Of a stretch of 49,447 nucleotides of DNA, positions 36,153 through 42,021 are shown piece after piece; the first letter of the stretch is position 1, and each line of letters begins with the position of its first letter. The notes beneath the pieces are model-generated. The model was not told where the DNA came from, ran no database searches, and was given only the letters and a program-made list of their open reading frames with translations. The translations under genes were made by a program, and so were the position numbers. This stretch comes from Holosporales bacterium (lineage in GTDB: Bacteria; Pseudomonadota; Alphaproteobacteria; UBA3830; JAIRWN01), in NCBI GenBank assembly GCA_031268985.1, contig JAIRWN010000014.1, forward strand, positions 1 to 49,447, in the 5' to 3' direction.

Positions 36153-37178
36153 CTACCAACGATTTTCGGTTATAACTTGATCTATTGGCAATCCTTGGCC
36201 GGACGAAAAAATCTTTTTAAAGCCGGAGCCTGCTTTTATATATATTCCGCCGTCGACAGGGCTTCCTGCATCTTGATTGGAGCCGGCGAAAAACATACCC
36301 CCATCAAACAGCCCCGCATGAACTATTTTTACAATTGTCTTAAACTCCGCCGACGAAAAGTAAGACAAATTAAGTAAATTCATTATACGAATCATGTGAT
36401 ATTGCCGGTTAAATGGCTCTAACACGCTGTGTTTGGATAATGCAAACCTCTTATCATTTTTTGCTGTGGACAGAACTTTCGGAGAAAATAATTTTATCTC
36501 TTTGGGCTGTATATTTCCTATTTTGTAATTATTTAAAATCCTACGAACAGCTGTATGTAGCAATATATAGTAAATCAAACCGTTAACTGGATAGAGCTTG
36601 CCTCCTATACTTTTCATACAATTAAAAACAAAAGGCGGCCACAAAATTTCAAGGATTTTGCCTGAGCTTGGATCAATCGTAACCGCACAAGATGATCGCC
36701 CGTTATTATATTGTTTTAGCACATAAACGCTGGGGCTGTAATCGGAAGCAATGAAATCTAAATCAGCAAAAACAGAGGACAGTTTTTTAAAAAAGTCCAA
36801 CGCAGTCCTACCGTCGCTTACGCCAGCGTCATGAACAGACAGAGGTTTTTGCTTATCAAAGTTTTTGACGGCAAATCTTATAGCTTTTTGATCGAAAACG
36901 TCAAAACGTTCAGCATAAGTTCTTTTATATGCCCCCCTGTCGTCAGATGATTGCAACAGTATTTTCTCAGCCAGTTCATCCGCATCCGGCTCATTTTGAA
37001 TCTGATCATAAAGAGTAATCGTGACCATTTTTAGCCCACTGAACCGCGAGGACTTCATGGTTCTTAGGGCGAGAATATTCGTGATCCCAGGCTTAGCCAT
37101 AGTCAAAAAAGCTATAATTGTTTTAAGAAATTTTAAAAACAGAGCAGAGGCGTTGGTTATGATGAAACTCGCGTTCAC
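36153..37178 (-). CDS. Hypothetical protein with a class I SAM-methyltransferase (CheR-like) fold; start uncertain
   Basis: VHDAGVSDG motif I, IASDYS, IRIMNLLNLSYF, LFDGGMFFAG. Confidence 0.55.
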   Translation of the reverse strand: MNASFIITNASALFLKFLKTIIAFLTMAKPGITNILALRTMKSSRFSGLKMVTITLYDQIQNEPDADELAEKILLQSSDDRGAYKRTYAERFDVFDQKAIRFAVKNFDKQKPLSVHDAGVSDGRTALDFFKKLSSVFADLDFIASDYSPSVYVLKQYNNGRSSCAVTIDPSSGKILEILWPPFVFNCMKSIGGKLYPVNGLIYYILLHTAVRRILNNYKIGNIQPKEIKLFSPKVLSTAKNDKRFALSKHSVLEPFNRQYHMIRIMNLLNLSYFSSAEFKTIVKIVHAGLFDGGMFFAGSNQDAGSPVDGGIYIKAGSGFKKIFSSGQGLPIDQVITENRW

Positions 37179-38042: not shown

Positions 38043-38778
38043 TTTCTGTTCCTATTGCCGCCAAATTTTGGTCCTCAAATTTGTGAAACATTTCCAGCAG
38101 AGACGATATTTTCAGCCCAGATTTTTCGCATCCTTTTAAATCGACAACTATACGACCACTGTGCATCATAATTAAACGATCGCCGTATTTCAACGCGTCT
38201 TCCATGTTATGGGTGATCATAAGCGTCGTAAGCCGGAGTTCGCGAACAGATCTGGCAGTGTATTCCATCAGCATTTTCTGCATTTTTGGATCCAGAGCTG
38301 ATGTATGTTCGTCCAAAAGCAGAATTTTTCCGCCGGAGTTCACTGCCATCAAAGTCGCAATAGCTTGGCGCTGACCGCCGGACAAAATACCCAATGGTTG
38401 ATCGATGAACTTCTCCAAACCGATATTCAACGATCTGATTTTATCAATAATGTCATTTAAGTGCCGCCAATAGAAAGCGAAGCGCGGCGTTTTCGTTCGG
38501 CTTAAAACGATATTCTCCAATACGGTCATGGCGGGAATCGTGCCTTTGTTCACGTCCTGCACAACCTGAGACACATCACCATTACGTTTGACTTCCCCAG
38601 AATCGGCTCGATACTCTCCGCTGATAATCTTCAACAACGTAGATTTTCCGGAGCCGTTGGCTCCGACGACTGTGCAAAATTCACCTTCACGCAACGAGAG
38701 ATTTATGCCCTTCAAAACCGGTTCAAAAACCCTCGGAAATGACTTTGTAACATTATTTATTCTCAGCATTTCTCTCAT
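38032..38778 (-). CDS. ABC transporter ATP-binding protein
   Basis: GANGSGKST, LSGGQRQ, LLLDEHTSALDPK, ITH. ATG 38778 overlaps the upstream stop (ATGA). Confidence 0.93.
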   Translation of the reverse strand: MREMLRINNVTKSFPRVFEPVLKGINLSLREGEFCTVVGANGSGKSTLLKIISGEYRADSGEVKRNGDVSQVVQDVNKGTIPAMTVLENIVLSRTKTPRFAFYWRHLNDIIDKIRSLNIGLEKFIDQPLGILSGGQRQAIATLMAVNSGGKILLLDEHTSALDPKMQKMLMEYTARSVRELRLTTLMITHNMEDALKYGDRLIMMHSGRIVVDLKGCEKSGLKISSLLEMFHKFEDQNLAAIGTENVN

Positions 38779-39728
38779 TCCACTATTGTTGCGTTTTCTG
38801 GAATATTTATCTTGTACTTTTGAGCCAATTTCCGATTTATGAAGCATTTGTGATCTTCTATCTTCGGGAAAAGCGGCGTCAGATCTTTCACCTGAGAGCC
38901 TTTCAGCAATTTTGCGACGAGTTTTCCGGCATTCCGTCCGACAGATTCGTAATTCACTCCGAAACTTGCCAGAGCCAGGCCGTCCCGTACCGATTGTTCT
39001 TCTATATTGATGACAGGGATGTTCATTTTCGCCGCTTCACCGGAGATAACGGCCAACGCGGATTGCAGACCGCTTGCTCCAACATAGATCACATCCGCTT
39101 TTCCTTTTAATTCCTGCATGCGAATCGGGATATCTCGCATCTGATCCACTGGAATAGCGACCAGGGACATTCCAATCGCTTTCGTTTCATGACGCATCAT
39201 ATTCAGGAGCGCCATATCGTTGCAATCGAAGGTTGTATATAGCATCCCAACCGTTTTTGCTTGGGGCAATATCGACCGGACCAGTGTCAAAAGCGCCTTC
39301 AGACTTTGCATATCTGAACTGCCGGTCATATTGTCGACGGATTTTGTTGGGGCATTTATCAGTTTTGCGTCCACAGGGTCTGTGACGTCGCTGTAAACCA
39401 ACGGAATGTCACAGATCTTTCCTTTTGCAAATTGCGCAATTGGAGTCGATATCGCCACTATAACTTTCGGATTATGGTTTTTTACATTCATTACAGCCTG
39501 AGGTATCAACGTGTGATCGAAGGCTATGTCGACAATCTCGTAGCGAATATTTTTGCCTTCAGAGTATCCGTTTTCCGATAATTCTTTTTTAATGCCGTCA
39601 ATCGAAGCCAATAGCGGAGGAATTTGCCCATAGTTAACAATGGCTACGAGCGGGGACTCTTGTTTTTCGCTGTCGCATCCGCTCAGAAACATGGTCGCTG
39701 CAGCTGCTGCAATAGATATTTTTTTCAT
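38775..39728 (-). CDS. ABC substrate-binding lipoprotein (ABC_sub_bind, Trp/Tyr-type), copy 1
   Basis: Lipobox FLSGC, STPIAQ, VTDPVDA, NMTGSSD, GVNYESVG, INRK. Confidence 0.9.
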   Translation of the reverse strand: MKKISIAAAAATMFLSGCDSEKQESPLVAIVNYGQIPPLLASIDGIKKELSENGYSEGKNIRYEIVDIAFDHTLIPQAVMNVKNHNPKVIVAISTPIAQFAKGKICDIPLVYSDVTDPVDAKLINAPTKSVDNMTGSSDMQSLKALLTLVRSILPQAKTVGMLYTTFDCNDMALLNMMRHETKAIGMSLVAIPVDQMRDIPIRMQELKGKADVIYVGASGLQSALAVISGEAAKMNIPVINIEEQSVRDGLALASFGVNYESVGRNAGKLVAKLLKGSQVKDLTPLFPKIEDHKCFINRKLAQKYKINIPENATIVE

Positions 39729-39839
39729 ACTCTTAATTCCCTATCTTTAATAATTTTCAAATCTCAACAAACGCCTGCCTTCTCTTGGGGCAGGTGACAA
39801 TAATTTTAAAATGATGTGCTGAAAAATATATATATTGGC

Positions 39840-39959
39840 CTAACGGCCAAAAATATAGAAAAAGAAAGAAATCTGACGGGAAAATAGCAGAATAGACTTC
39901 GAGATCTTGTCCTGATCTGTTCTTAAATTGCCTGCCATTTGCAACATTTCCAATTCCAT
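39840..39959 (-). CDS. Putative Phe-rich leader peptide (39 aa)
   Basis: MELEMLQMAGNLRTDQDKISKSILLFSRQISFFFYIFGR*. AGAGG RBS upstream. TTGGCC/GGCCAA hairpin overlaps the stop. Confidence 0.6.
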   Translation of the reverse strand: MELEMLQMAGNLRTDQDKISKSILLFSRQISFFFYIFGR

Positions 39960-39976
39960 TCTGCTTGCCTCTTTTC

Positions 39977-40006
39977 AAACTACAAGATTATCATAGCGCT
40001 TGTCAA
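39977..40006 (-). promoter_or_regulatory. Putative sigma70 promoter for leader and SBP copy 1
   Basis: Perfect TTGACA (40006-40001), 18 nt spacer, TAGTTT. Confidence 0.5.
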
Positions 40007-40023
40007 GCTTTTTCTAAGATTAT

Positions 40024-40992
40024 TTACTCTACTATTGTTGCGTTTTCTGGAATAATTATTTTATACCTCCTCGCTAATTTCCGATTTATGAAGCACTTAT
40101 GATCCTCAATTTGCGGATAAATTGGCGCGAGATCTTTCACTGAGGTGCCTTTCAGCAATTTTGCGACGAGCTTTCCGGCATTCCGTCCGACAGATTCATA
40201 ATTCACTCCGAAACTTGCCAGAGCCAGGCCGTTTCTTACTGATTGATCTTCTGAATCAAAGACAGGAATATTCATTTTACCAGCTTCTGAAGCAATAGTT
40301 GGCATGGCCGCATGAAGTCCGCTTGCTCCAACATAGATAAAGTCAACTTTACCTTTGAACTTCTGAATGCATATCGGAATATCGCGCACTTGATCTACCG
40401 GAATTACCACAATAGATAAATCAAAGACAGGCGCTGCTTTTTTCATCATTTCCAATAGAGCCGTATCATTGCTGTCTGATGTGAGGACAAGCATTCCTAA
40501 CGTTCTTGCATTTGGCAGAACCGTTTTTACAAATCTTAAAAGTACATCTAGGTTTTGTACATCGGAACTGCCGGTGATGTTATTGCTTGGGCGATTCTTG
40601 TATTTCAACAAACCGGAAGCTACGGGATCCGTGATCGCATGAAAAACCAGCGGAACATCGCAAATCTTTCCTTTAGCAAACTGAGCTATCGGCGTTGATA
40701 CCACAACCATTATTTTTGGATTATAATTCTTCAACTTCATCACGGTTTGCGGAATCAATGAATGATCGAAGGCTATATCTGCGATTTCTATTTTCACAGT
40801 TTCGTTCTCAATAAATCCATTATTAGCTAGCTCATCTTTGATTCCCTGAATTGAAACTTCCAGATCCTTGAGAGGCCCGTAATTAGCAATGGCTACTATA
40901 GGCAATACTTTTTTCTTCTTAAAGTTTGAAAATATGGCGACAGACGCCAACGCGGCTAACGCAATTGCAGTTATGACAGAAATATTTTTCAT
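40024..40992 (-). CDS. ABC substrate-binding protein, copy 2
   Basis: Close paralog of copy 1 (shared STPIAQFAKGKICD, GLALASFGVNYESVGRNAGKLVAKLLKG). N-terminal anchor without a lipobox Cys. Confidence 0.9.
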   Translation of the reverse strand: MKNISVITAIALAALASVAIFSNFKKKKVLPIVAIANYGPLKDLEVSIQGIKDELANNGFIENETVKIEIADIAFDHSLIPQTVMKLKNYNPKIMVVVSTPIAQFAKGKICDVPLVFHAITDPVASGLLKYKNRPSNNITGSSDVQNLDVLLRFVKTVLPNARTLGMLVLTSDSNDTALLEMMKKAAPVFDLSIVVIPVDQVRDIPICIQKFKGKVDFIYVGASGLHAAMPTIASEAGKMNIPVFDSEDQSVRNGLALASFGVNYESVGRNAGKLVAKLLKGTSVKDLAPIYPQIEDHKCFINRKLARRYKIIIPENATIVE

Positions 40993-41117
40993 AAATAAAG
41001 CTCCATATTCATATTAAAAACATATCAATAAGCGTTGCTGGAAACATAACGCTTTACTGAGCTATGTACTTATCTTTAAACGCAAGAAATAATGGTGGGG
41101 GAAAAATGACAATCGGC

Positions 41118-41234
41118 TTAAAGCCGATAGCACGAACAGTAAAATGTGATTGCAGCGAAACTTTGGACAAGCAAAAGTGTCGGGATATTTTTACATTCCC
41201 TTTCTTCTTTTAAAATTTTTATCTTCGCTAACAT
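41118..41234 (-). CDS. Putative leader peptide (38 aa)
   Basis: MLAKIKILKEERECKNIPTLLLVQSFAAITFYCSCYRL*. ATCGGCT/AGCCGAT hairpin overlaps the stop. Same layout as the leader of copy 1. Confidence 0.45.
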   Translation of the reverse strand: MLAKIKILKEERECKNIPTLLLVQSFAAITFYCSCYRL

Positions 41235-41250
41235 TTTAACTCTGCGATTC

Positions 41251-41279
41251 TATTTAAGATATAATGCGAACGTTGTCAA
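41251..41279 (-). promoter_or_regulatory. Putative sigma70 promoter for leader and SBP copy 2
   Basis: Perfect TTGACA (41279-41274), 17 nt spacer, TAAATA. Confidence 0.5.
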
Positions 41280-42021
41280 TAAAAAATTATGTAGTTGTGT
41301 GCTATTGCTGCCAGATACTGAGCAAAGCATTTTAACTGTTTTTTGGAAGAACGAGTATTATAAATTTCAGAAGCCCCTTAACATTTTTGTTAATTGCGCA
41401 ATGAGAGTTGTTACCGCAATCATGACTTTTTCGATATTTTGGGCGCTGAAGAATGCCGGTCGGGAATTGATCAATACTTTTTGAACTCTATGAATGCCTA
41501 GGATGTGAGCTTTAGAGATAACGATGCAGATGTTGAACACATTTTTGGCAGTGAAGTGGATACGGTTCTGAGAAATATATCCAGGAGCTGTTGCTGTTCG
41601 CTGAGTTGCTCAATGACGAACCATATGGTTATCTCAAGCGTCTGTATCGGTACAAGGCGAAGATACTGTGCTGCCCAGCGGAGGTAAAGAGGCTATCCAT
41701 ATGCTATGGAATTGGATAAACGCCAAAGGCAATCCAAGGGAGGAAAGATTGTTGAGTTTGATGAACCTAAACCAGATTACTAGTAGCGATACTACTCCGG
41801 AAGGTATTCTGGAGGCGATTAACATCAAAAATCCGCAAGCTGTACTGATTTAAAGGATTGGCTGCCTGACTTATGCGGAAGCGATTATACTAGGCGCAAA
41901 AGCTTATTAAAGAAGGTTTCTATGGGAAACCGTATACGATTAACAGGAAAAATGAGCATTTGCAACTTCAGGAATAAGCAGCGCAACTGCCACTGATGCT
42001 ATGCCAGCCTAAGCAAGAGAA

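Follow-up and report, generated by a model that had tools for sequence, protein, structure and literature searches.

Leader-peptide attenuation is a textbook mechanism, known mainly from biosynthetic operons of free-living bacteria. The pheL and pheM peptides of E. coli end in a cluster of phenylalanine (Phe) codons close to the stop, and in translational attenuation of the ermC/cat type a drug-stalled ribosome on the leader frees the Shine-Dalgarno (SD) sequence. Classical Phe, histidine (His) and tryptophan (Trp) leaders use transcriptional attenuation, and amino-acid attenuators which sequester the ribosome-binding site also exist, according to passages of PMC9413887. Here we describe a leader of this general kind on a 49,447-nt contig of a Holosporales bacterium (JAIRWN010000014.1, assembly GCA_031268985.1; the whole stretch is referred to as the window). 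It lies between two paralogous genes for substrate-binding proteins (SBPs) of an ATP-binding cassette (ABC) importer, and precedes the second of these, SBP2. A sequence-only reading of the window had proposed that Phe codons in an unannotated small open reading frame (ORF) let the ribosome sense the Phe supply for the importer, and that core proposal is supported by the orthologues and by a series of paralogues. We consider the element very probably to be a leader peptide sensing Phe-tRNA. It is probably a Phe-specific, ribosome-mediated attenuator which gates a Phe-type SBP by translational attenuation, through a helix between the run of Phe codons and the SD region of SBP2.

The leader and the genes around it are all on the minus strand. 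The leader ORF (39959..39840) encodes MELEMLQMAGNLRTDQDKISKSILLFSRQISFFFYIFGR, with 39 codons from ATG 39959 or 35 from ATG 39947, and ends FSRQISFFFYIFGR before a TAG stop (39842..39840). Five Phe codons were counted among the last 14, as originally read. The run itself is F28 F29 F30 Y31 I32 F33, numbered from ATG 39947 (39849..39866), with a further Phe at F22 (39884..39882). The stop is in the loop and 3' arm of hairpin 1, TTGGCC GTTA GGCCAA (39850..39835), which has a terminator-like pattern and is followed by an AU-rich tract, UAUAUAUAUUUUU (39834..~39822). Stem 2 consists of CCTGCC (39794..39789) and GGCAGG (39779..39774) on either side of a 9-nt loop, and in the minimum free energy (MFE) fold it is surrounded by an outer helix of UUUCAGCA (39824..39817) with UGUUGAGA (39769..39762). 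The hairpin over the stop, the AT-rich stretch and the second stem had all been described from the letters alone, and all are present, as is the TTGACA promoter element at 40006..40001. This -35 hexamer is preceded by an A-rich tract and followed, approximately 18 nt on, by a -10-like TAGTTT (~39982..39977). The ribosome-binding site AGAGG (39973..39969), 8 nt ahead of ATG 39959, and the 39-codon ORF assigned to it were both found as claimed. The start conserved among the orthologues is ATG 39947, giving 35 codons, and ATG 39959 with its AGAGG is particular to this genome (alignments A1-A3). The SD region of SBP2, AAAGAUAGGGAAUU (39748..39735), is the predicted partner of an anti-SD tract within the Phe run (39873..39855), located by helix search and in the MFE fold.

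Orthologues were defined as SBP2 protein matches of at least 65% identity, giving 12 including the window's own locus. The sequence-only reading had proposed looking for Phe clusters upstream of orthologous operons, and they were found at every one: at 12/12 loci of this Holosporaceae order the reading frame is kept open and in register, with Phe concentrated towards its 3' end, even where the gene upstream does not encode an SBP. The 14 codons before the hairpin hold between 3 and 7 Phe in all 12 cases; the upstream parts of the same ORFs hold 4 Phe in 258 residues. The peptides end FFFSYFFGL, FFFSHFFGH, FFFFSFFGH, FSFSFSFFFGH, VFFFFISFARQGK, FTFFFHIVFFGHQAN and similar, each directly before the stop, and ORF lengths differ by multiples of three (alignments A1 and A4). 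The promoter is kept among the Phe loci as an A-tract, CTTGACAA, 17 nt and a TATAAT-like hexamer, ie a sigma-70 type; CTTGACAA is present in the 5 rows which reach that far in alignment A2 (6 Phe-type loci). With about 70% identity, the spacer DNA also occurs in four genomes that belong to another family of the order. A search with the hairpin 1 motif matched 10 of 58 genomes of the order, compared with 2 of 58 for a reversed-pattern control. The 22-base palindrome-plus-TATATA motif of hairpin 1 was also seen in contigs titled Burkholderiaceae (two contigs of one metagenome-assembled genome) and Pseudomonadales. These three matches are in unrelated contexts; about one was expected by chance, so that three is slightly above expectation. 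A metagenome search with SBP2 gave 4 loci, and the sole one with upstream DNA (39% identity) had a divergent regulator gene there and no leader.

The same leader architecture recurs in front of the paralogues. The regions upstream of 41 SBP genes were examined; 3 were cut by contig ends and 38 could be classed, from an exhaustive list of leader ORFs sorted by hand. A leader with a clear run was found in 34 of the 38, namely Phe in 12, tyrosine (Tyr) in 10, His in 5 and Trp in 7, and the remaining 4 comprised two odd leaders and two regions without a leader. The Tyr runs, among which that of the upstream paralogue SBP1 is counted, end LLYSYYWP, LYSYSYYYWLPSQL, LYPYYRPSSR and others. The His runs end YPHHHHHWLSSQL, AIHHHHWLSSQL, SHSHHHRLSSR, YFRHHHWL and AHLHHHGL. 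Trp runs end WWRWRY, WWRWRR and similar, and a second small ORF then ends at the hairpin. All share the promoter, a GC hairpin at or just past the point where the run ends, a tract rich in U, a second stem and an SD of the GGAG type; the same AAAAACTTGACAA promoter precedes the Tyr, His and Trp leaders. The runs are confined to one frame in two of the classes, with 31 Tyr in frame against 0 and 1 in the other frames of the Tyr leaders, and 20 His in frame against 2 and 2 in the His leaders. Neither residue occurs in the upstream parts of the respective ORFs.

A tree was built of 40 SBPs, without the one whose gene is cut by a contig end. In it the SBPs with Phe leaders, SBP2 included, form one clade with support of 99/96. 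Those with Trp leaders are in a 100/99 clade, together with the two odd leaders, one leaderless gene and one whose upstream region is cut. The Tyr and His SBPs share a clade (99/97), into which SBP1 falls and within which the His subclade has support of 87/86. As judged from this tree and the translations, the type of run follows the SBP clade. The pocket region differs likewise, with N[IM]EEQ in the Phe, NAE in the Trp and DSEDQ in the Tyr type, and with Thr or Ser replacing a conserved Tyr in the His subclade.

Taken on its own, the ORF of the window could be due to chance. The caution in the sequence-only reading, that T-rich DNA produces Phe codons without selection, is fair for this locus alone: across the T-rich tract of the 12 Phe-type leaders there are 65 Phe in frame 0, compared with 36 and 51 in the other two frames. 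Such a distribution would suit a chance ORF in a spacer that holds the terminator of SBP1, for which hairpin 1 could pass, and the promoter of SBP2. Equally, the hydrophobic C-terminus of the peptide would suit a functional small hydrophobic protein, such as a membrane accessory of the transporter. Against both stand the conserved promoter upstream of the ORF, the frame kept in all 12 orthologues whatever the upstream neighbour, the covariation of helices at the nucleotide level described below, and the lack of any Pfam family match to the ORF. Homologous leaders, moreover, swap the run to Tyr, His or Trp, and no single small-protein function explains such a swap. We find either form of this explanation scarcely credible; the comparison of sequences across orthologues and paralogues decided in favour of a real leader, and confirmed it.

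Pairing within the leader RNA was assessed by permutation, the stability of duplexes between segments of the same leader (cognate) being compared with that of duplexes between segments of different leaders (non-cognate), a procedure which rewards compensatory change. The set comprised 29 leaders, among them the 12 of the Phe class. The MAFFT alignments A4 and A5 were out of register for the long-range helix and for stem 2, and RNAalifold on the MAFFT alignment returned hairpin 1 alone; pair counts were therefore used for hairpin 1 only and the other helices were judged by permutation. As a positive control the two arms of stem 2 were compared in the 12 Phe leaders, giving -10.70 kcal/mol for cognate and -4.69 kcal/mol for non-cognate pairs; 0/20000 permutations did as well. 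For hairpin 1, 60 of 60 cells are paired in 10 Phe leaders, with one GC to CG swap, and 96.9% of cells in 14 Tyr/His leaders, where 3 pairs differ on both sides.

In the MFE folds of 24 of the 29 leaders, including 12/12 of the Phe class, the pairing partner of the SD region is the 3' part of the leader ORF. For the duplex of run and SD in all 29 leaders the cognate value was -14.30 kcal/mol and the non-cognate value -11.40 kcal/mol, with 0/20000 permutations as good; within the Tyr class 212/20000 were as good. Ungapped helices through the SD core scored 9.05 in cognate and 6.88 in non-cognate combinations (0/20000), and reached at least 8 bp in 24/29. In the Phe class the best of them use the run or adjacent codons, and end 0-18 nt before hairpin 1. 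Compensatory changes can be followed from genome to genome: UUCCAUAUC pairs with GAUAUGGAG in G041 and UCCCAUUUUU with AAAGAUGGGA in G040, and in the Tyr class UUCUGUAUUCGUA pairs with UACGAAUACGGAG in G052 and GCUCUGUAUCCGU with ACGGAUAUGGAGC in G001. In the window two registers are available, an ungapped one of 8 bp including 2 G-U pairs (UUUUCUAU, 39862..39855, with 39744..39737) and one of 13 bp in the MFE fold (GAUUUCUU plus UCUUU, 39873..39861, with 39748..39735).

An unbiased scan of 28 segment pairs, made separately for the Phe set and the Tyr plus His set with 5000 permutations, gave two signals. The first was between the last 22 nt before the hairpin, ie the run, and the SD of the SBP gene (47/5000 for Phe and 37/5000 for Tyr plus His). 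The second was between the first 30 nt of the ORF and the tract upstream of the run (15/5000 and 14/5000). It corresponds in position to a 5' domain in the MFE fold of the window (39886..39971), where the leader SD and first codons (39971..39955) pair with the UCUAUUCUGCU..UUUC tract (39896..39880), which is conserved and lies immediately 5' of the run. No covariation was detected in the scan for U-tract with SD, run with U-tract, or U-tract with the flanks of stem 2. The GGCAGG noted earlier within the leader ORF is present (39936..39931), and had been suggested to pair alternatively with stem 2. That part of the earlier proposal did not stand: the cognate value of -6.97 kcal/mol was weaker than the non-cognate -7.71 kcal/mol, with 17617/20000 permutations as good, and the pairing was rejected. 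A separate hairpin occurs in the first half of the ORF in Tyr/His leaders, for example GGACGC/GCGTCC, GGATGT/ACATCC and GACGT/ACGTC in three of them; it is conserved, and both of its sides change between genomes.

Folding with and without a masking ribosome had also been suggested from the sequence alone. When a ribosome footprint was masked on the run, the SD became more accessible: in the Phe class its mean unpaired probability, 0.24 without the mask, rose to 0.50, and in the Tyr class it went from 0.25 to 0.43. A mask of the same size placed upstream left it at 0.24 and 0.25, respectively.

A covarying long-range helix which joins the run codons to the SD of the SBP gene indicates translational, rather than classical transcriptional, attenuation. 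In the mechanism we favour, transcription from the conserved promoter would give a leader RNA of approximately 250 nt, and a ribosome would translate the ORF of 35 or 39 codons. In free RNA the codons of the Phe run (39873..39855) would pair with the SD region (39748..39735), and the helix would close around hairpin 1 and stem 2 and so hide the ribosome-binding site. When Phe-tRNA is plentiful, the ribosome would pass the run and terminate at the stop in hairpin 1, the helix would re-form and the gene would be off. When Phe-tRNA is scarce, the ribosome would stall on the run, where its footprint would shield the anti-SD tract together with the 5' arm of that hairpin; the SD would stay free and SBP2 would be translated. 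The genes for the ATPase and the permease, which begin 5 nt past SBP2, are probably gated as well. The stalling, the direction of the response and a translational rather than transcriptional output are what we infer from the sequence comparisons, and as to the output we lean, with modest confidence, towards sequestration of the SD as the principal one.

Several observations weigh against this mechanism or limit what the tests can be taken to mean. Pyrimidine-rich Phe codons complement any purine-rich SD region, and within the Phe class the run-by-SD signal is modest (606/20000 by energy and 1464/20000 for ungapped helices). The His class gives no significant energy test (8388/20000) and no masking effect (0.34 before and after). 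In the window itself the helix is short and its register ambiguous, the unpaired probability of the SD climbs only from 0.41 to 0.52 under masking, and the MFE of the leader is ordinary, with z = -1.2 relative to mononucleotide shuffles. In the thermodynamic model the U-tract past hairpin 1 can partly substitute as partner of the SD when the run is masked. Gating of the ATPase and permease by Phe alone leaves the supply of these components to the other SBPs of an array unexplained. Finally, the mechanism gives no necessary role to the conservation of hairpin 1 or to the placement of the stop, which is at most 24 nt past the start of hairpin 1 in 25 of 27 tabulated leaders (2 of the 29 were left out of the table), and hairpin 1 with its U-rich tract fits a simple terminator pattern.

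This last point leads to the alternative of transcriptional attenuation, in which hairpin 1 and the U-tract, or stem 2, or Rho acting on an untranslated leader, would stop transcription ahead of the SBP gene, except when the 5' arm of hairpin 1 is covered by a ribosome that has stalled on the run; the run-SD helix would then be secondary. The classical leaders mentioned above work by transcriptional control, Rho is encoded in the genome, and the hairpins 1 of both leaders in the window have a terminator-like pattern. Immediately 3' of the run, hairpin 1 is kept in all classes and shows compensatory changes; the last codon of the run overlaps its 5' arm in the Tyr and His leaders, and the stop is in or just past it in most leaders. 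Other details count against it. Between the stem of hairpin 1 and the U-run there are 5-10 bases, mixed or A-rich; AUAAAA follows the stem in G049 and G036, and G032 has a C-run in place of the U-run. The second stem is without a U-run in G041 and G042, and no covarying terminator/antiterminator alternative was found among the 28 segment pairs. A non-stalled ribosome at the stop would also cover hairpin 1, and occlusion alone can therefore not separate plenty from starvation. In the geometry of the window, a ribosome with the first Phe of FFF in its A site falls short of the hairpin, and in three leaders the stop is 35-38 nt beyond the hairpin start. We regard transcriptional attenuation as unlikely to be the main mode of control. 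Termination at hairpin 1, or Rho action, may nevertheless add to or replace translational control. The run of eight C in G032 (L021/L034), where other leaders have U, represents either a real loss of the terminator tail or an assembly artefact.

The placement of the stop also bears on a different kind of sensor, in which the nascent leader peptide would sense the free amino acid and arrest the ribosome at or near the stop, as in TnaC, instead of charged tRNA being read through the run. Residues beside the stop are conserved, as FFG[HRL] in the Phe class and W[LP] in the others, and in most leaders the stop occupies a constant position within hairpin 1. The conserved G-H and W-L/P codons, however, form the 5' arm of hairpin 1, and RNA pairing therefore explains their conservation. 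In G041 and G042 the stop is shifted three codons downstream, and from class to class the rest of the peptide shows poor conservation. A run of 3-7 identical codons which switches among four amino acids is, moreover, the signature of sensing by tRNA supply. Arrest by the nascent peptide is thus very improbable, and tRNA sensing at the run, with SD sequestration as its output, is retained as the preferred interpretation.

SBP2 (38775..39728) encodes a lipoprotein with a lipoprotein signal and matches PF04392 with E = 7.3e-52. Its solved relatives are CD0873 (6HNI), VC_1101 (3LKV) and SP1069 (3LFT), with tyrosine, phenylalanine and tryptophan as the respective ligands according to PMC6816091. 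The earlier statement that this SBP family includes binders of aromatic amino acids is in keeping with those structures. SBP2 presumably binds Phe, a prediction from run type and clade. The residues in the pocket which govern selectivity in CD0873 give no help in this respect, and this too tells against the assignment: the selectivity column is Glu in 38 of 40 SBPs and does not separate the Phe, Tyr and Trp classes, for which reason the rule of Glu for Tyr and Gln for Trp was rejected as a class marker. At the second column of the rule, Tyr is present throughout the 34 SBPs which are not in the 6-member His subclade.

The remainder of the importer cluster consists of SBP1 (PF04392, 40992..40024), the spacer of 295 nt holding the leader of SBP2, SBP2 itself, the ABC ATPase (PF00005, probable start ATG 38769, to 38032) and the permease (PF02653, 38042..37200). 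A 341-residue ORF (36153..37178) without a Pfam match at E <= 0.001 adjoins the permease. SBP1 has a leader of the same architecture, with a -35 TTGACA at 41279..41274, an ORF of 38 codons ending ITFYCSCYRL (41234..41118) and a hairpin ATCGGC/GCCGAT (41128..41112). Its run is weak (2 Tyr and 2 Cys) and the MFE fold leaves its SD unpaired with the ORF; it may be a decaying or re-tuned leader of the Tyr type. Tandem arrays of two or three SBP genes, each with its own promoter and leader, occur in other genomes (contigs G043:C18, G027:C63/C73, G045:C95, G041:C71, G051:C58 and G036:C1). Where an array holds a Phe-type SBP, the Phe-type gene is downstream of the other SBP gene or genes.

The source genome is 858 kb in 41 contigs and is 91.5% complete. 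At that completeness no match to prephenate dehydratase or chorismate synthase was found, and Phe must therefore be imported. Neither the Phe leader nor SBP2 was found in the two congeneric genomes or in the one genome from the same family (compared G001, G002), and G002 retains the promoter and an SBP fragment alone (L046). The SBP2 of the window nests in the Phe clade of another family, at 77-80% identity. This nesting, together with the absence from near kin, suggests either horizontal transfer or differential loss.

The seven Trp leaders have two ORFs, the second of them hydrophobic (ending FSWPFGRQF or CFFWPLGR, for example) and situated about 45-50 nt after the WWRWR-like ORF; such a leader may act as a two-step relay. 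Beyond the order, 13 SBP homologues with 33-50% identity were obtained from 400 sampled alphaproteobacterial genomes. In six of the 13 a small ORF with W-x-W or WW at its end terminates 46-78 nt ahead of the start of the SBP gene, and a seventh was recognised by eye. The ORFs at these seven loci end GWRWQF, DWRWRL, RWRWRL, CWRWRR or RWWRWRA, and the genomes are of 1.2-2.5 Mb. With Trp-run ORFs at six of 13 outside loci, the Trp form is, by this sequence criterion, widespread in small genomes beyond this order. The Phe, Tyr and His forms were seen in this order alone, within the same sample.

These distributions allow a broader scenario, which we put forward tentatively and with some doubt. One RNA scaffold (a promoter, a leader ORF with a hairpin over its stop, a second stem, and an SD which pairs with the run) might have been copied along with the SBP paralogues, and exchange of the codon run with adjustment of the complementary SD flank might have been all that was needed to adapt it to four amino acids. 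Control would be purely translational, without a terminator/antiterminator switch, and the scaffold would be the main amino-acid sensor of auxotrophic intracellular Alphaproteobacteria, with a Trp version that is ancestral and common among lineages with small genomes. The leaders described here appear as a family with four or more specificities (Phe, Tyr, His and Trp among them) which would gate uptake proteins in genome-reduced symbionts without biosynthetic pathways, where import replaces synthesis. If this is true, reduced endosymbionts retain a fine, amino-acid-specific control which needs no protein regulator. The leaders would constitute a natural series of specificity re-programming by codon-run swap, useful for studies of attenuator evolution and for building sensors, and the ligands of unannotated SBP paralogues would be predictable from the type of run in their leaders.

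A search of Rfam over 38500..41500 at E <= 10 gave 7 matches, none of them a leader family or T-box and all far below the gathering scores, and at E <= 0.1 no family was matched in 10 loci with Phe, Tyr, His or Trp leaders. The element would accordingly add a family missing from Rfam 15. Leader peptides ahead of PF04392 importers, or in Holosporaceae, were not found described in the literature covered, which excluded subscription journals. The closest described systems are pheL-pheA and pheM-pheST of Enterobacteria (Rfam Phe_leader), which share the short ORF, the Phe cluster near the stop, the GC hairpin after it and a ribosome that reads the supply of Phe-tRNA. Compared to these, the target here is an SBP/ABC operon for uptake rather than biosynthesis or tRNA charging, the leader ORF is longer (35-45 codons) and does not match Phe_leader, and the run pairs with a downstream SD where pheL and pheM would have a covarying terminator/antiterminator pair. 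The attenuators of ermC and cat, which sequester the ribosome-binding site, also resemble the predicted mechanism, in that a segment of the leader ORF pairs with the SD of the target and a stalled ribosome frees it. In the present case stalling is predicted to be caused by amino-acid supply and not by a drug, and the codon run doubles as the anti-SD, without intermediate hairpins acting as a relay.

The same transporter family, to which the relatives SP1069 (3LFT) and CD0873 belong, is under T-box control as trpXYZ and hisXYZ in Firmicutes, with uptake induced by uncharged cognate tRNA; trpX is given as T-box controlled in PMC9382623, and hisXYZ as controlled by a T-box or an attenuator in PMC9413887. 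The sensor in the leaders described here would be a translated codon run, in contrast to direct binding of tRNA, and no T-box match was obtained. The Trp-type relatives, with their WWRWR-like runs, resemble the trpL leader of Alphaproteobacteria (for example Sinorhizobium trpE(G); PMC6614838, bioRxiv 606483). That leader controls Trp biosynthesis through transcription termination, whereas the targets here are the SBPs of importers, and for the Phe, Tyr and His versions no counterpart was found. The class of mechanism is thus a known one; what is new is the uptake SBP as target, the paralogue series with four specificities, the use of the run as anti-SD and the setting in a reduced symbiont.

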